From contig JBDHVB010000002.1 of NCBI GenBank assembly GCA_039809465.1, forward strand, positions 1 through 63,829: DNA of 63,829 bases, read 5' to 3'. A program made the translations under genes and the position numbers. This DNA comes from Myxococcota bacterium (GTDB lineage: Bacteria; Myxococcota; XYA12-FULL-58-9; JALHOP01). Below, in pieces: positions 2,276-46,948 of this stretch (positions are counted from its first letter, which is position 1; each line of letters opens with the position of its first letter). Under the pieces are notes generated by a model that saw only the letters and a list, made by a program, of their open reading frames with translations, was not told the DNA's origin and searched no databases.

Positions 2276-2300
2276 AAGAATGCACCGGGTGGTTTCTTGG
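2276..2300 (+). repeat. Single copy of the dispersed 24-nt repeat family (AAGAATGCACCGGGTGGTTTCTTGG)
   Basis: Direct match to the consensus seen at 7 other loci. It is followed by ACCGGTGC, which can pair with GCACCGG (7-bp stem). Lies in the roughly 900-bp divergent region between the PKS-like gene and the bactofilin genes. Confidence 0.85.
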
Positions 2301-18554: not shown

Positions 18555-18645
18555 CCTAGAAACCACCCGGTGCATGCGTGGCCCCTCCAGAAACCACCCG
18601 GTGCATTCTTGGGCCGGCCAAGAAACCACCCGGCGCATTCGTGGG
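18555..18645 (-). repeat. Three tandem copies (about 32-nt spacing) of the 24-nt repeat family, reverse orientation
   Basis: CTAGAAACCACCCGGTGCATGCGTGG / CCAGAAACCACCCGGTGCATTCTTGGG / CCAAGAAACCACCCGGCGCATTCGTGGG. Lies in the divergent aceB/polA region. The first copy abuts the aceB SD (GGAGGA). Confidence 0.9.
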
Positions 18646-30572: not shown

Positions 30573-30794
30573 CCAAGAAACCACCCGGTGCACTCTGGAC
30601 CCCAAAGAAAGCCCCCGGTGCACTCTTGGGCCGAGCGCTCCAGAAACCACCCGGTGCATTCCGGGGCATCCAAGAAAACACCCGGTGCATTCCAGGGCAT
30701 CCAAGAAAACACCCGGTGCATTCCAGGGCATCCAAGAAAGCACCCGGTGCACTCTTGGACCGAAGCACCCCAGAAACCACCCGGCACATTCTTT
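30573..30794 (-). repeat. Array of 7 tandem copies (31-38-nt spacing) of the 24-nt repeat family, reverse orientation
   Basis: Copies start near 30573, 30602, 30640, 30670, 30701, 30732 and 30770. An example is CCAAGAAAACACCCGGTGCATTCCAGGG, which occurs twice identically. The array fills the whole gap between the diguanylate cyclase stop and the ferredoxin gene. Confidence 0.9.
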
Positions 30795-32205: not shown

Positions 32206-32289
32206 GCGGTAGTGGCGGAATTGGTAGACGCACCAGCTTGAGGGGCTGGCGGTAGAAATACCGTGTGAGTTCGAGTCTCTCCTACCGCA
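32206..32289 (+). tRNA. tRNA-Leu (anticodon GAG)
   Basis: Cloverleaf folded by hand. Acceptor GCGGTAG/CTACCGC plus discriminator A. D-arm GCGGAATTGGTAGACGC. Anticodon stem CCAGC/GCTGG with loop TTGAGGG. Long variable arm CGGTA-GAAA-TACCG. T-loop TTCGAGT, with one U.U mismatch in the T stem. No encoded CCA. Confidence 0.85.
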
Positions 32290-34107: not shown

Positions 34108-36105
34108 ATGCTGCGAAACTCGCTCTTCCTCGTCGTTGGTTGTGTCGCCTGCGCGTCGTCGTCATCCACGTCAGCTCCAGAAGCCGCCGCTCCCGCCGAG
34201 CCCGCACCCGCGGCAGCCGCCGTCACCAGCACAACGAGCTATAGCGGTCACGGCTTGGAGAGCCTGCCGCCGGGGTTGCTCGAGAAGCTCGCCCCCAAGG
34301 CACCTCCCGCCGAGATCACCAAGCACGTTCAGCAGATGATCGAGCTCTTCGGACCGGGCGCGGGTTTGCTCACCCCCGACGCCAAGCGCCTCGTCTTCAC
34401 CTGGCGCGTGAGTGGTCAGCAGCAGCTATGGCGCGTCGATGGCCCGAAACACTTCCCGGTGCAGCTCACGAGCGGTGAGGATCGTACGTTCGTCGAGGCG
34501 ATCACGCCGGACGGCAAGACGATCGTGGTCAGCCGCGACGCGAACGGCGAGGAGAATCCAGGCATCTACCTGATGTCGGTGGACGGCGGTGCGCTGAAAG
34601 CCGTGCAGCACATGAAAGGCGTGCAGAGCCGTTATCACGTCATGAGCCGCGATGGCGGATCGCTCTATTTCACGGCAAACGACCAGGTGAAGGACAGCTA
34701 TGCGGTCTACCGTTATGTGATCGCGACCGGAGCGAAGGAGACGATCTTCACCGGCGCAGGGCTGTGGTCGGTGAGTGACGTCCGCGATGACGGAACCCTG
34801 CTGCTGCGCAAGGCGGTCGGCTCGCTGCCCTCGGAGTACTGGGAGCTCGCACGCGGCGCGAGCGAGCCCAAGCACCTCTTCGGCCAGGGAGAGAACGTCG
34901 AGTACGAGGCCGTCTATGGGCGCGCTGGCGAGATCATCGTGCAGACACCGAAGCTCGGAGAGTTCCGCCGTCTGTATCTCTGGAAGGATGGCACGCTCAC
35001 GCCACTGTCCGCTGAAACGGCCCACGACGTGTCGGGCTTCGGCGTCGACGACGACAAGAAGCGCTTGGTTTACCAGGTGAACGAAAACGGCTTCACGCGT
35101 CTGTTCACGATGGTGGCGCGCGGAAAGGCTTGGCAGCTCGAGGCGACGCCGTTCTTGCCCAAGGCGGATCACATTCAAGTCGCGGGCCTCACGCGCGGTG
35201 GACGTTACGCGACCGCGACCGTGGACTACGGCGACCGCCCCGCCTCGACGGTGGTGATCGATTTCACCGCGCGCAAAGTCACGAGCTGGCACGAGCAGAG
35301 CATTCCAGAGCTCGACACCCGGTCATTCGTGGCTGCAGAGCTCGAGAGCTACCCGGCCCGCGACGGCACCGCCATCCCCGCGTTCGTGCGCCGGCCCAAA
35401 GAGTGCGCCAACACGCTGTGCCCGGTCATCGTCGAGTTCCACGGCGGCCCCGAAGGACAATACCTGGGCGGTTTCAACGGCGGCGCTCAGCTCTTCGTTG
35501 ACGCCGGTTTCGTTCATGTGGCGCCAAACGTCCGCGGCAGCGATGGCTACGGTAAGACGTATCTTGCGGCCGATGACGGCGCGAAGCGCTTGAACATCAT
35601 CACGGACATCGAGGACGCCGCGGTCTGGGCGCGCAAAACGTTCGCCGTGGGTGGAGTCGAGCCCAAGGTCGGTATCTACGGCGGCAGTTACGGCGGCTAC
35701 TCGACGCTCGTCGGCATGACGATGTTCGCGGGCGCCTACGACGCGGGCGTGTCCGTCGTCGGCATCTCGAACCTCATCACCTTCCTGAACAACACGGCCC
35801 CCTACCGCCGAGTGCTCCGCATCTCCGAGTACGGCGACCCCGAAAAGGACCACGACGTATTGGCCAAGCTCTCCCCCTCGACCTACATCGACCGCATCAA
35901 AGCCCCGCTGCTCATCTTGCAGGGCGCCAATGACCCCCGCGTCCCCGCCGGCGAAGCCGTCAGCATGTACGACGCCATGCTCCTCAAGAAACTACCCGCT
36001 GAACTCATGATCTACGCCGACGAAGGCCACGGCGCCTCCAAGCGGAGCAACCGCGTCTCCATGATCGGCAACACCCTCCGCTTCTTCACCACCCACCTGA
36101 AGTAA
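34108..36105 (+). CDS. S9 family serine peptidase (beta-propeller plus prolyl-oligopeptidase/DPP catalytic domain), secreted lipoprotein
   Basis: Residues 33-697 of track ORF 34012..36105. Signal peptide MLRNSLFLVVGCVAC. Nucleophile motif GGSYGGYS. C-terminal ...GANDPRVP...DEGHG. Confidence 0.88.
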   Translation: MLRNSLFLVVGCVACASSSSTSAPEAAAPAEPAPAAAAVTSTTSYSGHGLESLPPGLLEKLAPKAPPAEITKHVQQMIELFGPGAGLLTPDAKRLVFTWRVSGQQQLWRVDGPKHFPVQLTSGEDRTFVEAITPDGKTIVVSRDANGEENPGIYLMSVDGGALKAVQHMKGVQSRYHVMSRDGGSLYFTANDQVKDSYAVYRYVIATGAKETIFTGAGLWSVSDVRDDGTLLLRKAVGSLPSEYWELARGASEPKHLFGQGENVEYEAVYGRAGEIIVQTPKLGEFRRLYLWKDGTLTPLSAETAHDVSGFGVDDDKKRLVYQVNENGFTRLFTMVARGKAWQLEATPFLPKADHIQVAGLTRGGRYATATVDYGDRPASTVVIDFTARKVTSWHEQSIPELDTRSFVAAELESYPARDGTAIPAFVRRPKECANTLCPVIVEFHGGPEGQYLGGFNGGAQLFVDAGFVHVAPNVRGSDGYGKTYLAADDGAKRLNIITDIEDAAVWARKTFAVGGVEPKVGIYGGSYGGYSTLVGMTMFAGAYDAGVSVVGISNLITFLNNTAPYRRVLRISEYGDPEKDHDVLAKLSPSTYIDRIKAPLLILQGANDPRVPAGEAVSMYDAMLLKKLPAELMIYADEGHGASKRSNRVSMIGNTLRFFTTHLK

Positions 36106-37497
36106 GCCGGTGGTTTCTTGCTTACCCACGAAAGCGCCAGGTGCTTTCATGTGGTGCGTTTTTGCGTCTCAGGTTGAGACACTCGGCGGTGGGGGGTGCG
36201 CTCGAGGCTTTCAGGCGAGCGGACTGACGAGCTCGGCCTAGGCACGCTAGGTGCTCTGCATTGCGGCATGAGCATTTCAGAGATCGATGCTGCGCTGGAG
36301 CGCGGCGAGAAGTTGTACGCGGCGACGCGGCACGCACGCTTCATCAAAAGTGATGTGCCTCTGCACATCATTCTCTACGCGGTTCAGGGCCGCCACTTGC
36401 TCAGGCCTTGTCCTGAGCTGAACGACATCATCGTGGGCGTACTCGCGCGTGCGCTGTTTCTTTACGCAAAGGTCGAGCTGTACGCCGCCGCGTTCCTCTC
36501 GAATCACGCGCATCTCATGCTCCAGGGGCCGCCCGAGCAAGTGCCGGCCTTCATCGGCTATGTCAAACGCGAGATCTCCTATCGTTGGGGGCATAGCCGA
36601 CAGGTCAATCGACATGGGCAGATGTGGCGGGACTATCGAATGGTCGCGCTGCCAACAGCGGAGAGCCAAGTACAGAGCCTTCGATACGTGCTCTCGCAAA
36701 GCGTGAAGGAGGGGCTCGTGGTGCGCCCACAGGATTGGCCCGGCGTGCATTGCGCGCGCTCATTGCTCACGGGCGCGCCAATGCGTGGATGCCTATTGAA
36801 CGGGACTCGTTACTCCCGGGCAGTCGACGCGGAGAAACGTAAACGCCACCCGCGACCAGTGCATCGTCGAGACTTCAACATCGAGTACGCGCTGACCTTC
36901 GCACCGTTGCCTGCGTGGAAGCACTTGAGCGAAGCGACGCGACGCGCCGAGGTGAAGGCACTCGTTGATGGAATCATTGCGGATGGTCACGCCATGCGTA
37001 AGGGCCGTCCTCCGATGGGTGCACGCCGCATCATGCGCGTTCCATTGGATCACATGACGGACCTTCCGAAGGAGCCCTGGCGGGAGAGGGTGCGGCCGTT
37101 GGTGTGCTGGGCTTCACCTCACGCGCCCGAGACACGCGCCTACCTCGAAGATTATCGGCTATTCCAGCACGCATTCCGGGTGGCCTCGGATGAGACGAAA
37201 CAAATGGCTGATCCATTTGCCGCCCTCTTTCCTGAGGGCGCGCATATCCCAGGACGCTATAACAGCCCAGCGGCTTTCGTAACAGCGGCCTAAGCAAACC
37301 AACTCACAATCAGCGTGACTTCGAGTGCGTCCCTATTAAGCGCGCTCCGCCGCGCGTTGGTCTCCGCGCGTCCTCGAGGCCGAGGCTCTCTCACCCATCG
37401 AACAATCGCAGCGTCAGAGCCGCACAGACAAGACAGAGACAAGAAGGCACCCGGTGCATTCCTTGGGGGCCGAGAAAGCACCGGGAGCGTTTGGTGG
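36106..37497 (+). mobile_element. REPtron-like unit: HUH/Y1 (RAYT/IS200-like) transposase gene bracketed by inverted doublets of the 24-nt repeat family
   Basis: Left doublet 36106-36150: GCCGGTGGTTTCTTG ... CGAAAGCGCCAGGTGCTTTC. Right doublet 37440-37497: CAAGAAGGCACCCGGTGCATTCCTTGGG ... GAGAAAGCACCGGGAGCGTTTGGTGG. In each doublet the two members are in opposite orientation and can pair. Confidence 0.6.
36196..37293 (+). CDS. REP-associated tyrosine transposase (RAYT) / IS200-like Y1 HUH-family protein with a roughly 170-aa C-terminal extension
   Basis: 365 aa; an alternative start is ATG 36268 (MSISEID...). HUH motif in LYAAAFLSNHAHLMLQG. Then RHGQMWRDYRMVAL and the catalytic-Tyr helix LRYVLSQSVKEGLVVRPQDWPG, which is the pattern of PF01797-type Y1 transposases. 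Confidence 0.75.
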   Translation: MRSRLSGERTDELGLGTLGALHCGMSISEIDAALERGEKLYAATRHARFIKSDVPLHIILYAVQGRHLLRPCPELNDIIVGVLARALFLYAKVELYAAAFLSNHAHLMLQGPPEQVPAFIGYVKREISYRWGHSRQVNRHGQMWRDYRMVALPTAESQVQSLRYVLSQSVKEGLVVRPQDWPGVHCARSLLTGAPMRGCLLNGTRYSRAVDAEKRKRHPRPVHRRDFNIEYALTFAPLPAWKHLSEATRRAEVKALVDGIIADGHAMRKGRPPMGARRIMRVPLDHMTDLPKEPWRERVRPLVCWASPHAPETRAYLEDYRLFQHAFRVASDETKQMADPFAALFPEGAHIPGRYNSPAAFVTAA

Positions 37498-37603: not shown

Positions 37604-39043
37604 ATGGCGGCAGGGGAGATCATTCGGGCGTCTGACAACGTGTCAGGCGATTGGACGCAGCGTTGGCAAGGTGTGTCCGCGGCAGCGCACGATGCGTACG
37701 TCACCGTGCGCGAGAATCCGGGGACCACCGTGCTGGTCGCCGCCGGCGTTGTGGCGTTGACCGTGGCGTCGCCAGTTGTAGCCACAGTGATGGGCACCGT
37801 GGGCGCGGGCATGGCGCTGTATTCGGGCACCAAGATCGCGTGGAACGAAACACACGCCGCCATGGCTGCGACACGGGGTGATGCGGCCGCGAGAGCGGAC
37901 TACCTCAGGCGCTCTGGGCGAGAAGCGTTCAACGTCGGCATGTGGGGCGTCGGATCCGCAGCAGGACGCAGTGTTGCCGCGGTCGCCCGCCTTCGCGGTA
38001 GCCTGGCTACCGAAGCGGCCGTCGATGCCACCAAGAAAACGTCCGTGCTCCCAGCGCCGGTGACCAGCCCGCCGCCGGCTCCTGCCGTCACAATAGCTCC
38101 ACCGCCGGCTGCTCCACCGCCGCCGGCCGCCGCTGTCCCGGTGATCACGGCGCCGGCCACCGCAGAATCCACCCGTTCTATTCGCGAGAGCGCACAGTAT
38201 TTCGAAACGCTGCGTCACCGCGTCGATGCTCTACGCGCCGACGCAAACGTGCCCGACGGCCTGTTCGGTCTCCAGCGCGAGCTCAGCAACGTCCGCGCAA
38301 CCTATTCGCCCGCCAGCGGCATGAGCTTCGACACCTATCTCGACACGCGCTTGCGCGCCGCAGTCGACATCGAGCGCCGCTATTGGGATGCGATGCGCGC
38401 GGTCAGCAGCGCCTCATGGGACGGCCCACGCGCGGAGATGCCGCTCATGTTGCGCTTCGCCCGCCAGACCGAGCTGCACCGCCGCAATGTCGATACTGGT
38501 CTCGCACGGCTCACAGGTGCAGGGCGTGGTTTCCAGACACCGCACGATGTCGTCGAGCTCCGTCCAATTGATGAGATCATCGAGCTGTCACGGCAGCAGG
38601 GCGCACCCGGGTGGTTGCGGAACATCGCGGACCGCGCGCGCTCGGACGGCGTCCGCACCTACGACGTGGGCAAGCCAGACCCATACATCATGGCCGGTCT
38701 CTCCCAGCCAGGTGCCGCCGATGTTTGGGCAATTCGCATGCATCGCTTGGCGCCACACCACGCCGACACGCCGATGTCTTGGGAAGGTGCCATCGACTAC
38801 GTCAACGCGCTACGCATGCCACGCTTCTACGGATTACCGACACCGCGTCCATTCAGCGACATCTGGCAGATCGCCAACGCCGACCTGCTCGCCAACAGAA
38901 ACGGCATGGTCGCGAGCAACCTTCCGAAGATCCAGGAGGCGATGCGCGTGCACTTGGCTCTCGAGCGCGAGGGTCAGATCGTTCCCTACTTCCGCCGTCT
39001 GCCGAACGAGGTACTCCCCGACTTCATGCGAGGCTCACCATGA
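37604..39043 (+). CDS. Hypothetical protein: N-terminal Gly/Ala-rich hydrophobic segment, Pro-rich linker, roughly 300-aa C-terminal domain of unknown function
   Basis: Track ORF 37454..39043. Its first 50 codons are read through repeat copies (…KAPGAF…), so ATG 37604 (MAAGEIIRASD) is preferred. TM-like TTVLVAAGVVALTVASPVVATVMGTVGAGMALY. Linker PAPVTSPPPAPAVTIAPPPAAPPPPAAAVPVITAP. Confidence 0.65.
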   Translation: MAAGEIIRASDNVSGDWTQRWQGVSAAAHDAYVTVRENPGTTVLVAAGVVALTVASPVVATVMGTVGAGMALYSGTKIAWNETHAAMAATRGDAAARADYLRRSGREAFNVGMWGVGSAAGRSVAAVARLRGSLATEAAVDATKKTSVLPAPVTSPPPAPAVTIAPPPAAPPPPAAAVPVITAPATAESTRSIRESAQYFETLRHRVDALRADANVPDGLFGLQRELSNVRATYSPASGMSFDTYLDTRLRAAVDIERRYWDAMRAVSSASWDGPRAEMPLMLRFARQTELHRRNVDTGLARLTGAGRGFQTPHDVVELRPIDEIIELSRQQGAPGWLRNIADRARSDGVRTYDVGKPDPYIMAGLSQPGAADVWAIRMHRLAPHHADTPMSWEGAIDYVNALRMPRFYGLPTPRPFSDIWQIANADLLANRNGMVASNLPKIQEAMRVHLALEREGQIVPYFRRLPNEVLPDFMRGSP

Positions 39044-39276
39044 GCTTCCAGATCGGCGATAACGTCCGTTTCACGCTCGACTACCGCCTGGACCTCCCCC
39101 CGGAGCACGAGGGCGTCACACACGTCCCCATGGGTACGCGCGGTCGCATCGTTTTCGCGGACGAGAGCCTCGTGATGGTCGAGCTCGCCACGACCCACGA
39201 GCGCGTCCCCGTTTGGGAACGCGGAGCGTTCTCACAGCGCTCCGCAACCACCGAGGTGCTCACCGTGGATCGCTAG
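39040..39276 (+). CDS. Small hypothetical protein (78 aa) translationally coupled to the upstream gene
   Basis: Residues 144-221 of track ORF 38611..39276: MSFQIGDNVRFTLDYRLDLPPEHEGVTHVPMGTRGRIVFADESLVMVELATTHERVPVWERGAF.... The ATG overlaps the upstream TGA (ATGA). Confidence 0.55.
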   Translation: MSFQIGDNVRFTLDYRLDLPPEHEGVTHVPMGTRGRIVFADESLVMVELATTHERVPVWERGAFSQRSATTEVLTVDR

Positions 39277-41339: not shown

Positions 41340-42856
41340 AGGAACTGAATCCCCTGGGCAAGCGGCAACGCCGTCGACCAGTTCACGGTTTGCGTTTGAC
41401 GGCGCATGTACGCCTTCCAGGAGTCGGAGCCGGCTTCGCGTCCACCGCCGGTGTGCTTCTCGCCGCCAAAGGCGCCGCCGATCTCCGCCCCACTGGTTCC
41501 AACGTTGACGTTCGCGATGCCGCAATCACTGCCCATCGCCGACACCCAGCGCTCTGCGTTGCGCATCGACTCGGTGAAGATCGAGCTCGACAGCCCCTGC
41601 GGCACGTCGTTGTTGATGCGGATCGCGTCTTCGAGCGAGTCCACGGTCATCACGTACAAGATCGGCGCGAAGGTCTCTTCGCGAACGATGGCCATCTCGG
41701 CCTTGGCCCGCACGATAGCCGGCTCGACATAGAAACCACCCGGGTACTTCTCGCCGGTGAGCCGCTTGCCGCCACGCAGGAGCTCGCCGCCTTGGGCCTT
41801 CGCCTGCTCGAGAGCGCGGGTATAGCTCGCGACCGCGTCGGCATCGATGAGCGGGCCCATCAAAGTGCCTTCCTCGAGCGGATTGCCAATCTTTACCTGG
41901 TCATACGCCTTCACGAGCTTGTCGACGAAACCACCGGCGATGTTCTTGTGGACGAGCAGCCGGCGGGTCGAGGTGCAGCGCTGACCAGCCGTGCCGACCG
42001 CGCCAAAGAGCACTGCGCGCAGCGCGAGCTCTTGGTTGGCGTCGTCCATGACCACCAGGGCGTTGTTGCCCCCGAGCTCCAAGAGCGAGCGGCCGAAGCG
42101 CTTGGCGACGACCTGACCGACATGCTGCCCCATGCGGGTCGAGCCGGTGGCCGAGATGAGCGGGACGCGCTCGTCGTTGATGAGCTTCTCGCCGATGGTC
42201 TCGTTGGCGCCGATGATGAGCGACATCACCCCCTGCATTCCGTGCTTGGCGAGGACATCGTCCATGATCTTCTGGGTGGCGATGGCGCAGAGCGGCGTCT
42301 TGAACGACGGCTTCCAGATCATCACATCGCCACACACAGCCGCGAGGAACGCGTTCCACGACCAGACGGCGACCGGAAAGTTGAAGGCGCTGATAATGCC
42401 GACGCAACCCAGCGGGTGCCATTGCTCGGTGAGACGGTGCAGCGGGCGCTCGCTCGCGATCACCTGACCATAGATTTGACGCGACAAACCGACCGCGAAG
42501 TCGGCGATGTCGATCATCTCTTGGACCTCACCCTCACCCTCGGCACGAATCTTCCCCATCTCGAGGGAGACGAGTGCACCGAGTGCTTTCTTTTTTGCGC
42601 GCAGAGCGTTGCCCATCTCGCGAACGATCTCGCCGCGCTGGGGGGCGGGCATGGCGCGCCACTTCTCGAAAACACCCAGTGTTTTCTTCATGACGACTTC
42701 GTAATCTTCGACCGTCGCCATCTTCACGCGACCGATCTTCGAACCATCTCCCGGGGCGAAGCTGTCCAGCCATTCGCCGTGGGTTTCGATTGGGCTGCCC
42801 GCCGAGGCGCCAAAGCTGTCGGCGCCGAGGCCGAGCTCGTTCAAGATTTCGCGCAT
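41336..42856 (-). CDS. Aldehyde dehydrogenase, ALDH7 / piperideine-6-carboxylate (aminoadipate-semialdehyde) dehydrogenase-like
   Basis: Residues 62-567 of track ORF 41336..43039: MREILNELGLG.... Family-typical GEGEVQEMIDIADFAVGLSRQIYG, ISAFNFPVAVWSWN, LELGGNNA, catalytic GTAGQRCTSTRR. Confidence 0.85.
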   Translation of the reverse strand: MREILNELGLGADSFGASAGSPIETHGEWLDSFAPGDGSKIGRVKMATVEDYEVVMKKTLGVFEKWRAMPAPQRGEIVREMGNALRAKKKALGALVSLEMGKIRAEGEGEVQEMIDIADFAVGLSRQIYGQVIASERPLHRLTEQWHPLGCVGIISAFNFPVAVWSWNAFLAAVCGDVMIWKPSFKTPLCAIATQKIMDDVLAKHGMQGVMSLIIGANETIGEKLINDERVPLISATGSTRMGQHVGQVVAKRFGRSLLELGGNNALVVMDDANQELALRAVLFGAVGTAGQRCTSTRRLLVHKNIAGGFVDKLVKAYDQVKIGNPLEEGTLMGPLIDADAVASYTRALEQAKAQGGELLRGGKRLTGEKYPGGFYVEPAIVRAKAEMAIVREETFAPILYVMTVDSLEDAIRINNDVPQGLSSSIFTESMRNAERWVSAMGSDCGIANVNVGTSGAEIGGAFGGEKHTGGGREAGSDSWKAYMRRQTQTVNWSTALPLAQGIQFL

Positions 42857-42947: not shown

Positions 42948-45149
42948 ATGCATCCTCGCGCCGCCCTCCTCCTCTTGCTCGCCACCGCGTGCAGCAAGCC
43001 GCCCGAGCTGACTGACATTGGCCCCCGGCTCATCAGCAATCAAACGAGTCAACCCCTGGCCCTCGTTGGGAAAAACTTCCGCGACGGAATGGAGCTCGAG
43101 CTCGGCGCCCCGATTTCAAGAAAGCACCCGGTGCATACCGTGGATGGGACGCATGCGTATGTGAGGTTGCCGGCGGACCTGGTTTTGCCGGCGGGGACGG
43201 ATGCGCAGGCTGTCAGTGTGGCGCTGGTGGGGGGGAAGCAGGGGGCGCAGCCGTTGCGGTTGCGGGTGGTGAACGACGCGGCGTTTCCGGATTTGATGGC
43301 GATGGTCGTTGGGGATGGGGCGGTGTTCGCGGCGTCGGGGACCACGGATACGCTTTATCGCTACGATGTCGCGAGCGGGGCGGTCGAGGCGTTGCCGGGT
43401 GGTGATGGGCCGAGCGCGCTGGCCGTGTACGCGGAAGCGGACGGCAAGAAGCGGCTCGTAGTCGCGCATCAGTTCGAGCCCAAGGTCTGGATTTGCGATG
43501 GGGGCACCGGCCAGAAGCTCGGCGAGCTCGACGCGCCAGCCTACGCGAGCGCCATCACCGTCGATGGAGACAGCATCATCATCGCCGAGCAAGCCCTCGA
43601 CACTGTCCGCAAAATCGGACTGAAGGATGGCAAGCAGCGTTGGCTCACCAGCGTCGATCCGAATCCCAAAGGCCTCGCCCTCACCAGCAGCTCGGTCGCG
43701 GTCGGCAGTCTGCTCACCGGGCGTATCGAGCGTCTCGATCGCGAGACAGGCAAGCTCACATCCATCATCACGCCCGACACCGAGACGCGCATCGTAGGCG
43801 GCCACACCGAGCCCTACGGCAAATTCATCATGGGCGGTAAAGCCCAACGCGATCTCCTCTGGCTCGCCAAAGCGGACAAGATCCTGTCGGCAAACATCGG
43901 ACCCAACATCGGACCCAATCCCGACAAGATGGAAGTCAGCATGAACGGCGGCGTGAGCGTCGTCGATCTCGCGAGCGACCGGGTCACCTCGCACCTGGGC
44001 TTCGGCTATGGCGTCCCCCAGGGTCTCGCGGTGGATGAAGAGGCAGGCCGCGTCTACGTCGCCGATGTCGCGACTGGGCTCGTGCGCGTGGTGGAGCTGG
44101 CAAAGCTCCTCACCGGCGACAAGGCCGCCGTCAGCTCCCTCCCCGTCCCACCCCGCAAGGACTTTCCGCTCACCCGCGCCGCGGCGGACTTCGGCGTGAA
44201 TCAACGCTCGGGCATCGAGCTGCACTCCGGGCCGCAGGCGCTCGCGCTCTCGCCCGACAAGCAGACACTCTACGTGCTCAACCGCTTTAGCGGAACACTC
44301 GCCATCGTCGACGTCACCAAGGCGCCGCAGACCCTCATCACCAAGCAGGTCGCGCTCGTCAACACGCTCAATCAGCGCGAGAAGCGCTTGGGGCAGATTC
44401 TCTTCTTCACCGATCTCGGCCGCACTGGCATGTCGTGCGAGGCGTGTCATGTCGAAGGTCACGGCGATAGCGTCCTCTTCGAGAAGACCACGCCGCTGCG
44501 CATCTATCGTGTGCCGACGATCCGCGGCGTCGCGGAGACTCCGCCATACTTCGTCCCAGCCAGCACCTTCAGCATCCCCGAGACCAACCGCAAAGTCGGC
44601 GACCGCAACCGCTTCCAGAATCCGAATCAAACGAACGACGAAGTCACCTGGCTCACGATCTTTGCTTCGGAGCTCGCGACGCTCCCCAATCCGTTCGTGG
44701 GCGCGGACGGGGCACCGCCTGCCGAGCTCACGCTACCCGATGGCGCCAAGGGTTCTCCGCTTCGGGGCATGAAGCTCTTCGAGGGCAAGGCCGACTGCGC
44801 GTCATGTCACCCCGCGCCCTACTTCACGACCGACCAGGTCGCGGCGACCCGCAATCGCTTCATCGAGGTCGGCACACCGCATCGCATGCCGCTGCGTGAA
44901 GAGATGCAGAGTGAGTACTTCACTGGCTTCCCAGCCCCGGCGCTCATCGGTGCCTGGGACGTATGGCCAATGCTCAACACCGGTCTCGGGGGCTTCGATG
45001 TCGCCGCTGACAAGGACGGCCTCGATGTTCGCGATCGTTTTGCTCTGCGTGCGGTCATCGAGCGCTACAGCAAGCCCCCCCACGGCAAGGCCGATACGCT
45101 GACGCCGAGTGAAATCAACGACTTGCTGGCGTATCTGCTGACTCTCTAG
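42948..45149 (+). CDS. Lipoprotein: IPT/TIG-like domain, YVTN-type beta-propeller, C-terminal di-haem cytochrome c peroxidase (CCP/MauG)-like domain
   Basis: 733 aa. Signal peptide and lipobox MHPRAALLLLLATAC. Propeller-like repeats (GPSALAV..., PKGLALTSS..., PQGLAVDEEAGRVYVAD, PQALALSPDKQTLYVLN). Two CxxCH haem motifs: CEACHVEGHG and CASCHPAPYF. Confidence 0.85.
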   Translation: MHPRAALLLLLATACSKPPELTDIGPRLISNQTSQPLALVGKNFRDGMELELGAPISRKHPVHTVDGTHAYVRLPADLVLPAGTDAQAVSVALVGGKQGAQPLRLRVVNDAAFPDLMAMVVGDGAVFAASGTTDTLYRYDVASGAVEALPGGDGPSALAVYAEADGKKRLVVAHQFEPKVWICDGGTGQKLGELDAPAYASAITVDGDSIIIAEQALDTVRKIGLKDGKQRWLTSVDPNPKGLALTSSSVAVGSLLTGRIERLDRETGKLTSIITPDTETRIVGGHTEPYGKFIMGGKAQRDLLWLAKADKILSANIGPNIGPNPDKMEVSMNGGVSVVDLASDRVTSHLGFGYGVPQGLAVDEEAGRVYVADVATGLVRVVELAKLLTGDKAAVSSLPVPPRKDFPLTRAAADFGVNQRSGIELHSGPQALALSPDKQTLYVLNRFSGTLAIVDVTKAPQTLITKQVALVNTLNQREKRLGQILFFTDLGRTGMSCEACHVEGHGDSVLFEKTTPLRIYRVPTIRGVAETPPYFVPASTFSIPETNRKVGDRNRFQNPNQTNDEVTWLTIFASELATLPNPFVGADGAPPAELTLPDGAKGSPLRGMKLFEGKADCASCHPAPYFTTDQVAATRNRFIEVGTPHRMPLREEMQSEYFTGFPAPALIGAWDVWPMLNTGLGGFDVAADKDGLDVRDRFALRAVIERYSKPPHGKADTLTPSEINDLLAYLLTL
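43116..43143 (-). repeat. Copy of the 24-nt repeat family lying in-frame inside CDS 42948..45149
   Basis: TCAAGAAAGCACCCGGTGCATACCGTGG. About 23 of 27 positions match the reverse-orientation consensus CCAAGAAACCACCCGGTGCATTCTTGG. It is translated as SRKHPVHTV within the IPT-like domain. Confidence 0.7.
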
Positions 45150-45157
45150 CGCCTCCA

Positions 45158-45427
45158 GGACAGCACCGGGTGGTTTCTAGAGCCGGGGGCGCGCGCACAA
45201 GACCGCACCGGGGTCCGTTTCTAGAGTGGGTGCACGAGCGAAGAATGCACCGGGTGGTTTCTGGAGCGGGCGCGCGAGCGAAGAATGCACCGGGTGGTTT
45301 CTGGAGCGGACGCGCGAGCGAAGAATGCACCGGGTGGTTTCTGGAGCGGACGCGCGAGCGAAGAATGCACCGGGTGGTTTCTGGAGCGGACGCGCGAGCG
45401 AAGAATGCACCGGGTGGTTTCTGGGGG
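45158..45427 (+). repeat. Tandem array of 7 units of the 24-nt repeat family with a 40-bp period (minisatellite), forward orientation
   Basis: Units start at 45158 and 45199 (both degenerate) and at 45241, 45281, 45321, 45361 and 45401. The units at 45281, 45321 and 45361 are identical 40-mers: AAGAATGCACCGGGTGGTTTCTGGAGCGGACGCGCGAGCG. The unit at 45241 differs by one base. Confidence 0.95.
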
Positions 45428-45446: not shown

Positions 45447-46451
45447 TTGGGTATGTTCCTGGTGCTTCCGAAGGGGCAGTCGCTGCGGGCGGTTGCCGAG
45501 CGGTTGGGTGTGGCGGTCGAAGAGCTGCAGAAGCACACGGCCGTCAAAGACGTGGACGCGCCGGCGGTGGTCGAGCAGCGGGTCGAGGTTCCTGACGGGT
45601 TCTTGCGGAGCAAGCGCGAGAAGGCCGAGCTCACCGATGCGATGTCGTCGCCGTCTGGGAAGCGCGGCGGCATGAATATGTGGCTCGCGCTCGACATCGA
45701 GCAGAAGCGCACGCGCGCCGCGGGGGGGATGAAAGCCGGCAAGCAGCGCGACAGTGAGGCCGAGGCGCTGGCTGAAGCGCGCACCGCGTATCTGCGGTTC
45801 GAGGCCGCGAGCAATGACCTCGCGGCTGACCTCTATCAGCAGCTCACCTCGACGGTCTCGACCGATGTTCGCGCCCGTGCCTTCGCGGGTCTCGGCTGCG
45901 CGCAGGCTCAGAGAGCGCTCATCTTCGGCGACCTCAACGAACGCAATCGCGTCGTCGCCCTCAGCAGCGCGAAGGCCGCGCAGCTCGCGGATCCCAAGCT
46001 CCCCGAGTCGCACCTCGCCATGGCCCTCGCCCTGCAGATCAACGGCACCCCGGCCGACTTCGCGGAAGCGCGCGCCGAGCTCATCCGCGCAGTCGAGCTC
46101 GATCCCAAGGCGCACCTTTGTATCGCCGAGCGCGGCCGTCTCGAGTGGCGGGCCCAGGACATCGCGGCCGCTCAGGAAGCCGTGACAGCCGCCCTCGACC
46201 TCGACCCCGACTCACCGTTCGCTCTCGAGCTAGACGCCCACATCCGCCTACAGCGCGGTGATCGGGATGGCGCCCGCGGCCAACTCCAACGCGCCATCTC
46301 GGTGTTGCCCACCTATGCTGACAGCATCGCCCTCTTGGCGACCCTCGAACAGGGTCCTGAGCGCACGAAGCTCATCGCCGATGCCCGCGCTCAGGCCACT
46401 TCCGAGGATCATTTAAAGCGCTTGAACAGCACGATCCTGCGTGAGGAGTGA
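45447..46451 (+). CDS. LysM-like plus TPR-repeat protein
   Basis: 334 aa. The N-terminus LVLPKGQSLRAVAERLGVAVEELQKHTAV...VEQRVEVP resembles LysM. The C-terminal half shows TPR-like helices (…ALDLDPDSPFALELDAHIRLQRGDRDGARGQLQRAISVLP). Confidence 0.75.
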   Translation: MGMFLVLPKGQSLRAVAERLGVAVEELQKHTAVKDVDAPAVVEQRVEVPDGFLRSKREKAELTDAMSSPSGKRGGMNMWLALDIEQKRTRAAGGMKAGKQRDSEAEALAEARTAYLRFEAASNDLAADLYQQLTSTVSTDVRARAFAGLGCAQAQRALIFGDLNERNRVVALSSAKAAQLADPKLPESHLAMALALQINGTPADFAEARAELIRAVELDPKAHLCIAERGRLEWRAQDIAAAQEAVTAALDLDPDSPFALELDAHIRLQRGDRDGARGQLQRAISVLPTYADSIALLATLEQGPERTKLIADARAQATSEDHLKRLNSTILREE

Positions 46452-46493
46452 AAACCCCACAGCCAAGTGTGTGGTGAACACCCCACGATCAAA

Positions 46494-46515
46494 TGTGTTG
46501 ACTTTTGTCAACACA
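46494..46515. promoter_or_regulatory. Perfect palindrome TGTGTTGAC-TTTT-GTCAACACA in the AT-rich leader (candidate operator or activator site)
   Basis: Read directly: 9-bp arms with a 4-nt spacer. It is flanked by the imperfect inverted pair CACCCCACGATCA (46479-46491) and TGATCGTGGTGTGG (46629-46642). Confidence 0.45.
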
Positions 46516-46520
46516 CCAAA

Positions 46521-46622
46521 GATAACTACCTGATTAGTAAAAACATTTCACGCCAGCGCATTTTTGAGGCATTTGCTCCACACTACTCCACCCCTCACAA
46601 TAACTAGCTGATTTTACTAAGC
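46521..46622 (+). repeat. Two direct repeats ATAACTAsCTGATT..TA..AA.C, 78 nt apart, in the AT-rich leader
   Basis: GATAACTACCTGATTAGTAAAAAC (46521-46544) and AATAACTAGCTGATTTTACTAAGC (46599-46622). Confidence 0.5.
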
Positions 46623-46778
46623 TATCATTGATCGTGGTGTGGATCCCACGGCCATCCCGGCAATCTCCAAAGCAGAAAAACACCATAACATTCAACCACT
46701 TAGACCAATCTCATAGGTCCAAGCGGCAAGCGATGCTCCCACACGCACATACGATCAGCTGCGGTCTCGATCCCCCAT

Positions 46779-46804
46779 CAAGAATGCACCGGGTGGTTTC
46801 TGGG
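46779..46804 (+). repeat. Single copy of the 24-nt repeat family
   Basis: CAAGAATGCACCGGGTGGTTTCTGGG, a perfect match to the core of the 45.2-kb array. Confidence 0.9.
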
Positions 46805-46862
46805 AGTGCCACACTTGCGGTAAGTGCTTGATCTCACAACAGCGATCATGGTTCACGAAGAC

Positions 46863-46879
46863 TTGGCACAACACTAGCT
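46863..46879 (+). promoter_or_regulatory. Candidate sigma-54 (-24/-12) promoter for the 46949-60344 operon
   Basis: TTGGCACAACACTAGCT compared with the consensus TGGCACG-N4-TTGCW. GG (46865-66) and GC (46877-78) are separated by exactly 10 nt, with one mismatch in the -12 box. It lies about 70 nt upstream of the ATG at 46949, which has a GAAGGAGA SD. Confidence 0.5.
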
Positions 46880-46948
46880 AGAAGGGTTCCACACGCTGCG
46901 CGAGCATCGGCAGCAATGATGTCGAACCTGTTTGAAGGAGATTCACAG

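Follow-up and report, generated by a model that had tools for sequence, protein, structure and literature searches.

A divergent Y1 (HUH) gene and its bracketing repeats as a probable REPtron-like unit in a Myxococcota genome

The window analysed here is a stretch of 63,829 nucleotides (nt; 64 kb) from contig JBDHVB010000002.1 (assembly GCA_039809465.1) of a Myxococcota bacterium whose habitat is activated sludge or wastewater. It carries a gene for a Y1 (HUH) protein resembling the tyrosine transposases associated with repetitive extragenic palindromic (REP) sequences, the RAYTs, together with a family of short dispersed repeats, copies of which lie on both sides of the gene (Table 1). The RAYT-like gene follows an S9 peptidase gene, and no other Y1-like sequence was found in the window, in line with an earlier note on this DNA that had named it the sole locus of its kind. 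The start of its reading frame, which that note had placed at the GTG at 36196, was moved to the ATG at 36268 as the most likely start. Public gene calls and the homologue alignment agree on this, and in several homologues in-frame stop codons stand directly upstream of the equivalent ATG. The GC content is 0.61 for 36001-37000, and the RAYT-like gene and the next two open reading frames (ORFs) are lower in GC and in GC at third codon positions (GC3) than the rest of the window; these three did not pass a gene filter set at GC3 > 0.78.

Table 1 Features of the RAYT-like locus and of the repeat family in the window
Feature	Position	Strand	Remarks
RAYT-like Y1 (HUH) gene, 341 amino acids	36268..37293	+	HUH at nt 36502-36513; Tyr140 at nt 36685-36687
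Family-specific C-terminal domain, residues 153-341 (~190 amino acids)	36724..37290	+	From profile and structure searches
Upstream half-copy of the repeat, GCCGGTGGTTTCTTG	36106..36120 (profile match 36109)	+	Immediately 3' of the S9 peptidase stop codon; kept in orthologous L004
Upstream degenerate palindromic copy, CGAAAGCGCCAGGTGCTTTC	36129..36148	+	Homologues have their '+' flank motif at this position
Upstream palindrome, TTTTGCGTCTCA-N3-TGAGACAC	36160..36182	+	Candidate enhancer or operator site (putative function)
Sigma-54-type -24/-12-like element, GGCACGCTAGGTGCT	36241..36255	+	Ends 12 nt before the ATG
Downstream inverted doublet	37440..37497	'-' copy 37440-37462 and degenerate '+' copy 37474-37497	REPIN-like hairpin; kept in L004
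Dispersed single copy	2276..2299	+	Divergent intergenic region; 24-mer and profile searches
Three-copy direct array, period 31-32	18556..18642 (copies 18556, 18587, 18619)	-	Divergent intergenic region, polA / malate synthase gene
Seven-copy direct array, period ~31	30574..30793	-	Between the GGDEF gene stop and the ferredoxin gene
In-frame intragenic copy	43117..43136	-	Lipoprotein-like gene, peptide ISRKHPVHTVD
Seven-unit direct array, period 40	45163..45424	+	Between two + strand genes; repeat core identical in 5 units
Dispersed single copy	46780..46803	+	Intergenic

The HUH and catalytic tyrosine motifs that had been read from the translation are present (N79-H80-A81-H82 and Tyr140) and are conserved among 42 homologues, all of which have N79 and H80 and at least 90% of which have H82 and Y140; the Y1 core spans approximately residues 25-152. 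The Pfam model Y1_Tnp (PF01797) matched weakly (E 0.046, 14.3 bits against a cut-off of 23), and the NCBIfam model REP_Tyr_transpos (NF047646) matched at E 2e-11, with 43.9 bits against an equivalog cut-off of 80. A profile built from the 42 homologues matched ISDra2, IS200 and TnpAREP chains in the PDB, with IS200/IS605 TnpA being the best, and the alignment placed NHaH over DHVH and the conserved Tyr over the catalytic Y132 of ISDra2 TnpA. According to Foldseek, the top 26 matches of the AlphaFold2 model (pLDDT 89.8) were Y1 transposases without exception, the match being limited to the first ~160 residues. The best superposition was with 4er8, the E. coli TnpAREP in complex with a REP hairpin (TM 0.70, root-mean-square deviation 3.2 Å, 156 columns). 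Thg1-like Foldseek matches to the full model were disregarded because of their low TM. Homology to Y1 transposases therefore held in formal search, through the conserved HUH and Tyr residues, the PDB profile and the Foldseek matches, and the protein is a member of the Y1 (HUH) transposase superfamily (TnpAY1).

After the catalytic tyrosine the sequence runs RY[VI]LSQ[GS]VKEGLV with MW[RH][DE]Y, and the RAYT signature (Y-I/V-x-x-N-P, WQ/WE) is missing. The C-terminal domain that follows has no Pfam family, and its separate model (pLDDT 78) found no PDB fold match below E = 1. A profile of this domain matched 1318 clusters among 1.84 billion representatives (50%-identity clusters), nearly all of which were the C-terminal halves of proteins of 300-350 amino acids with an N-terminal Y1 domain. 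As it is almost always paired with an N-terminal Y1, the domain is confined to this family, which is currently named inconsistently or not at all in annotation. The gene could thus not be retained as a canonical RAYT: its scores fall below the Pfam and NCBIfam cut-offs, it has YxLSQ rather than YxxNP, its C-terminal domain is an orphan, and its repeats lack a GTAG foot and for the most part fold weakly.

Copies of the repeat stand in inverted orientation on either side of the gene, in the window as well as in its orthologue L004 and in homologues from two phyla, which is the arrangement that defines a REPtron. The earlier note had described each flank as an inverted doublet able to base-pair. 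Downstream this is the case, as 37444-37491 pair with -14.5 kcal/mol (z -2.7), whereas upstream both copies have the same orientation and fold separately. The upstream copy at 36129-36148 aligns with TCGACCAGGAACMTTC in loci L005, L008, L011, L015, L016, L017 and L018. Profile scores were weak at 36109, 36129 and 37474, and degeneration has gone further in the flank copies than in the dispersed copies. The GT[AG]G (GTAG) foot of classical REPs is absent from the window repeats.

To map the family we used a profile built from good copies of the 24-mer, which recovered the motif positions listed previously and added one weak match at 42570. With up to three mismatches the 24-mer has 14 matches in the window versus 0 in 100 shuffles, the core GCACCSGGTG has 21 versus 0.67 expected, and approximately 24 good copies were counted within the 64 kb versus 0 expected, which within the window would fit the dispersed repeat of a REPtron. 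The motif has the form CCAAGAATGCACCGGGTGGTTTCTTGG here and a conserved centre of 11-13 nt; its core, GAATGCACCGGGTGGTTTC, is an imperfect palindrome and is scattered intergenically as singles and head-to-tail arrays. The claim that almost all copies are intergenic was upheld, the exceptions being the copy at 43117, in frame in a lipoprotein-like ORF, and weak intragenic matches at 42570 and 35985. In Tandem Repeats Finder the arrays appear head-to-tail, with a unit recurring every 31-32 or 40 nt. Their spacers are identical inside one array and different from array to array, which suggests that arrays grow through local duplication. A CRISPR-like array was ruled out, the spacers being only 7-16 nt long and uniform per array.

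Related loci were sought in 185,579 species genomes, which yielded 425 of them, and locus-level comparisons were made on the best 80. All of these 80 come from metagenome-assembled genomes (MAGs) or assemblies of uncultured bacteria, and the label is in most cases Myxococcota or Acidobacteriota/Thermoanaerobaculia. The gene had been expected to be single copy, and for the family this fails: related MAGs hold 2-5 paralogues that are 50-65% identical. Near-identical copies, such as an ordinary insertion sequence (IS) would leave, were not found among them. For each locus we took the best inverted match between the upstream and the downstream flank. Myxococcota homologues are bracketed by ATCGACCAGGAACMTTCT, with '+' copies 130-240 nt upstream and '-' copies 170-310 nt downstream, often as short arrays. 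One coherent clade of Acidobacteriota has the same bracket with GGTGCCAsCCGA, in variants specific to sub-clades; the Acidobacteriota loci L028, L029 and L031 hold 13-17 copies per 20 kb, and tandem arrays with a period of 26-40 occur there and at other loci. The direct tandem arrays, previously taken as an oddity of the window, are thus typical of homologue loci. Tandem head-to-tail clusters are known for classical REPs too (PMC3733652), and arrays alone are therefore not novel. Each position of the window motif has its counterpart in the Myxococcota motif (AGAAGG-CACCCGGTGC versus AGAAGG-TTCCTGGTCG), L024 being intermediate, and motif variants follow the protein sub-clades. Furthermore, P0004 and P0008, two paralogues of one MAG that are 63% identical, have a common flank motif; that they diverged and kept the same motif speaks for a functional site that is maintained and against recent copies of an IS.

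Two orthologous loci allow gene and repeats to be compared in place. L004 belongs to a close relative, in which the neighbouring proteins are 89-98% identical and the RAYT-like protein 75%, and both flank doublets are kept. L016 is a locus of MAG CAZAER and runs colinear with 26051-48000 of the window, with 75-84% nucleotide identity in the neighbours and 64% over the RAYT-like gene; at the protein level its neighbours are 83-95% identical and the RAYT-like protein only 51-53%, on another branch of the tree. A RAYT-like gene thus occupies the S9-peptidase/TIM position in three genomes, with no near-identical duplicates and with a syntenic divergence far above that of the neighbours. The motif of CAZAER (L016/L005), ATCGACCAGGAACCTTCT, differs from that of the window, and both seven-copy arrays are absent at the orthologous sites of L016, where the intergenic regions measure ~58 and 42 nt. 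At the intergenic site 46780 each genome has its own variant, AAGAATGCACCGGGTGGTTTCTGG in the window and CGAAGTGAGCAGGAACCTTCTTGG in L016 (L016 variant GAAGTGAGCAGGAACCTTCTTGG). Within the lipoprotein gene at 43117, the same codons read GAAAGCACCCGGTGCAT (ISRKHPVHTVD) in the window and GAAAGTTCCTGGTCACT (FSRKFLVTSVD) in L016, between flanks that are ~85% identical; part of the change in coding repeats is non-synonymous (HP to FL). A weaker case of matched variants is found in the last part of the S9 peptidase coding sequence (window 35985-36001). Since orthologous sites carry each genome's own variant and no ancestral sequence is retained, gene and repeats change together. This joint change speaks most strongly for a functional link, and it suggests in-place conversion of the repeats or strong co-selection.

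With L004 as the comparison, dN/dS is 0.10 for the RAYT-like gene, both dN and dS being ~2-5 times those of the neighbours, and the gene is under purifying selection. RNA-seq contigs of at least 99% identity were found in four runs of one wastewater study, three of which have them on the gene itself and one on its 3' flank; a contig of run X25 covers the downstream doublet. Over a 7-kb stretch in these runs, long contigs of that identity were confined to the gene and the flank 3' of it, and the neighbouring housekeeping genes TIM, PGK and GDH were not covered. The contigs are without strand information, and DNA carry-over is possible.

In the Myxococcota clade of the window, the region upstream of the gene has a common order, namely repeat, palindrome, ~55 nt and GGCAYR-N5-TGCW with the spacing of a sigma-54 -24/-12 promoter. 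Besides the window, this region was seen in L004, L005, L008, L011, L013, L015-L018 and L024, and the clade consensus of the palindrome is GCGTC(G/T)CA-N3/4-TGCGACAC (13 upstream regions aligned). GGCAYR-N5-TGCW stands at the equivalent place in 10 of 10 clade loci and in L024, versus 0 of 66 other homologue loci, and has only two matches in the entire window. An in-frame start follows 12-16 nt past the element: 9 of the 11 loci have an ATG after 12-15 nt, L005 has GTG at +16 and L016 has ATC at +12. No sigma-70-like site was found upstream of the RAYT-like gene on the + strand. The element and its spacing point to an enhancer-dependent promoter with a near-leaderless mRNA, under what would be sigma-54 control, and a literature search found no report of such control of a RAYT-like gene. 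An RNA contig whose start precedes the element by at least 66 nt counts against a leaderless start there, though the spacing fits. At L016 9965-10000, ATC replaces the start ATG of all relatives and an in-frame stop lies just upstream, with the rest of the 337-codon frame intact; the RAYT-like gene of CAZAER may be either poorly translated or freshly inactivated.

The earlier note had joined gene and repeat family in one REPtron-like unit, and this is strongly supported by the brackets found across genomes and by the co-variation seen with L016. With a probability of about 0.7, we read the locus as a unit of the REPtron/TIRtron type, that is, a fixed, expressed and divergent Y1 gene bracketed by the motif that its protein recognises. 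The fixed and expressed gene with its bracket is seen in the fold and catalytic residues, the conserved bracket, the co-variation, the gain and loss of arrays, the purifying selection and the RNA-seq contigs, while the binding, the cleavage and the single-stranded substrate of the protein are putative. In the mechanism we propose, the Y1 protein would bind the motif, probably on single-stranded DNA (ssDNA) and aided by its C-terminal domain. Tyr140 and the HUH metal site would then nick the motif, and the strands would be rejoined. Such nicking and rejoining could seed new copies and keep old ones matched to the current specificity of the enzyme, and arrays might then enlarge by local duplication of the unit plus its spacer.

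Several points weigh against this interpretation. The action of the protein on the repeats is something that we infer, and the copy number and abundance figures cover 64 kb of this genome. The repeat variant seen most often is only weakly folded as ssDNA (-2.5 to -3.4 kcal/mol, z above -1.3) and differs in this from the hairpins of canonical REPs and of IS200. The repeat palindrome (consensus 81% paired) shows no covariation beyond shuffles; covariation was therefore dropped as support for a hairpin, shuffles equalling the observed values, and it is only the consensus that is palindromic. The Acidobacteriota motif lacks a palindrome, and about half of the Acidobacteriota homologue loci have no recognisable flank motif. 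Copies at the Myxococcota MAG loci cluster close to the genes, and few others lie within ±10 kb, so that high dispersal is not universal. Furthermore, the RAYT-like gene has a dS of 1.75 versus 0.6-0.8 in its neighbours (comparison with L004), and the syntenic L016 copy is not the closest relative of the window protein. Together these two suggest that the cassette was perhaps replaced instead of having evolved in place.

Alternatively, the repeats might be sites for a host function, such as ssDNA processing at forks, genome structure or regulation, and might have been spread by slippage or recombination, not by the enzyme, an explanation that we consider improbable. Arrays in the window are sense to the neighbouring gene in every unambiguous case (co-directional or adjacent), which would suit such sites, as would the catalytic residues and large extra domain under purifying selection, the RNA-seq contigs on the gene but not on its neighbours, the one copy retained inside a coding sequence and the identical spacers within an array, i.e., growth by local duplication. 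Nevertheless, the sense bias was not significant in 27 Acidobacteriota loci (14 sense versus 9 antisense, with a crude gene caller), new arrays stand where a relative has none, and variants at orthologous sites track the form of their own genome, which is easier to understand if an enzyme rewrites or copies the repeats.

Slightly less probable still is an autonomous IS or TIRtron, whose gene and inverted flanks would be mobile as a unit and whose solo ends, or derivatives resembling miniature inverted-repeat transposable elements (MITEs), would be the dispersed repeats. The inverted motifs do lie at fairly constant distances from the gene, related genomes do hold 2-5 paralogues, and both the elevated dS and the 51-53% identity at the S9-peptidase/TIM position, set against ~90% in the neighbours, fit cassette replacement or re-insertion. 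On the other hand, the paralogues are 50-65% identical and near-identical copies were not found, one chromosomal position is occupied across three genomes, and there is no tnpB partner; the flanks are arrays varying in copy number rather than defined ends, the host-type promoter/enhancer architecture is kept across paralogues, and an empty site for the gene itself was not found. Finally, chance placement of an abundant intergenic repeat around an unrelated Y1-like gene is very hard to credit: although the repeat occupies ~7 of ~55 intergenic regions, which by our own estimate would put it on both sides of a gene in ~1-2% of cases, and although the flank copies in the window are degenerate, the bracket recurs around homologues where the motif is rare elsewhere in the genome, reappears in another phylum, there with a different motif, and has its flank copies conserved in orthologous L004.

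Beyond the REPtron/TIRtron-type unit itself, a broader proposal is possible, to which we give somewhat less than even odds. The family may be an unclassified Y1-HUH subclass made of a Y1 core and an orphan domain of ~190 amino acids (>1300 clusters; uncultured bacteria, mostly Myxococcota and Acidobacteriota in the best 80 loci). Its members would act on short, weakly palindromic or non-palindromic motifs, rewriting copies in place, coding ones included, to track their own specificity, and would build head-to-tail arrays; in one clade they would have a sigma-54-type promoter and an enhancer-like palindrome.

Some further observations concern the surroundings of the gene and of the repeats. Two genes without a Pfam family (474 and 78 amino acids) occupy 37604-39261, between the downstream doublet and the TIM gene. 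They are also found in L004 and are absent at that place in L016, a two-gene indel adjoining the REPtron. The three-copy array at 18556-18642 extends as far as GGAGGA, the Shine-Dalgarno sequence of the malate synthase gene, and occupies much of the intergenic region shared with polA. As it abuts the ribosome-binding site and fills much of the divergent region, it may be located in the 5' untranslated region or the promoter. Two independent short-read assemblies of the window's organism (public contigs L001 and L002) end inside the seven-copy arrays, at window 30735 and 45251, which indicates that these repeats fragment metagenome assemblies. When metagenome contigs were scanned for the motif, an exact 20-mer gave no match, and a 16-mer gave, among the matches listed, only singles that were evidently due to chance; both scans are uninformative on genome-wide abundance. 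The intergenic stretch 46450-46900, upstream of a gene for a thrombospondin-type-3-repeat protein, is A+T-rich (57% GC versus ~65%) and contains two copies of a 26-nt direct repeat, GTGAAAACCCCACAACCAAATGTGTG, at 46448-46498. An Rfam scan found no match in or near the RAYT-like locus, its sole match in the window being a tRNA gene at 32206-32289 (50.7 bits), between the GGDEF gene and secG.

The spread and persistence of REP-type repeats have been argued mostly from Gammaproteobacteria and one crystal structure. In the loci described here the partnership of gene and repeat reaches Myxococcota and Acidobacteriota, where the protein architecture differs and the repeats are barely hairpins. They also offer a natural experiment, in which colinear genomes with ~90% identical neighbour proteins carry different enzyme and motif variants at equivalent sites. 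With two such genomes at hand, co-evolution of specificity and possible in-place conversion could be tested with two proteins and two oligonucleotides. A sequence-programmable ssDNA nuclease-ligase with a new recognition domain, if that is what the protein is, might interest tool builders. For annotation the family matters because its naming is inconsistent and its repeats break metagenome assemblies.

Among known systems, REPtrons are reportedly RAYT/TnpAREP genes flanked by REPs or bacterial interspersed mosaic elements (BIMEs), with E. coli yafM and the Pseudomonas RAYTs as examples, in work said to be that of Nunvar in 2010, Bertels and Rainey in 2011 and Ton-Hoang in 2012. The present unit resembles them in its Y1 HUH/Tyr core, superposed best on TnpAREP 4er8, in the sequence after the tyrosine, where xxVKEGLVxxPxDWPG parallels the RAYT NPVRAGLVxxPxxYPW, in the inverted bracketing copies of a repeat that is also dispersed intergenically and whose motif is specific to a protein clade, and in having diverged paralogues and not identical copies. 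It differs in the length of the protein (341 versus ~150-200 amino acids), in YxLSQ for YxxNP, in the orphan 190-residue C-terminal domain and in a score under the NCBIfam equivalog cut-off. Its repeats lack the GT[AG]G foot, are mostly weak hairpins and occur predominantly in head-to-tail arrays, and the system is found in Myxococcota and Acidobacteriota MAGs. In the classification of Quentin et al. 2018 (PMC6006769), subclasses 2.2, 2.4, 2.5, 2.7 and 2.8 are of the REPtron type; REP-associated subclasses are short and have YxxNP, and the large-C-terminal subclasses 2.1 and 2.3 are without REPs.

TIRtrons with their TIRYTs (Di Nocera et al. 2013, PMC3733652), which mostly fall in subclass 2.1 of Quentin et al. 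2018 (PMC6006769), likewise have a tyrosine-transposase gene between inverted repeats that are not classical REPs, and a longer protein with a C-terminal extension. In some genomes their TIR repeats form moderately abundant families, in dimers or clusters (PMC3733652). However, TIRYTs keep Y-x-x-x-NP and have HTH or DnaA_C-like C-termini, whereas the domain here has no Pfam or PDB match; the TIR consensus GGGGWSAS is absent here and the flank motifs differ. TIRYTs, or subclass 2.1, were therefore ruled out as the home of the family by motif, length, repeat sequence and C-terminal domain. Published RAYTs and TIRYTs are 24-37% identical to the protein over local core stretches of 27-101 residues, and ~24-30% identical over the longer alignments of ~90-100 residues.

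TnpAY1 class 3 (~178 amino acids, YV[VI]xEQ or Y----Q, repeat CnGAGCCGCGACCGTnAGGGAGCG with a CnGA foot, CCGAGCCGCGACC...; PMC6006769), known for example from Solibacter usitatus, shares with the present family a Gln, not Asn-Pro, after the catalytic Tyr, as well as atypical, weakly structured flanking repeats that can reach high copy number, several related genes per genome and Acidobacteria as hosts. It was ruled out as the family home by motif (Y[IV]LSQ, Y---Q, here), length (341 amino acids here) and repeats of unrelated sequence. IS200/IS605 TnpA (IS608, ISDra2) has the same HUH/Tyr fold and the Y---Q spacing, but here there are no identical multi-copy elements, no tnpB and no subterminal hairpin ends, the syntenic position is fixed and the protein is over twice as long. 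An IS200/IS605 insertion sequence, recognised by near-identical copies, defined hairpin ends and often tnpB, was accordingly rejected. Of the 12 TnpAY1 subclasses in Quentin et al. 2018 (PMC6006769), not one accommodates the RAYT-like protein. The arrangement of gene and repeats is one known from REPtrons and TIRtrons, and the protein architecture and the barely hairpin repeats are what differs from canonical RAYTs and REPs.

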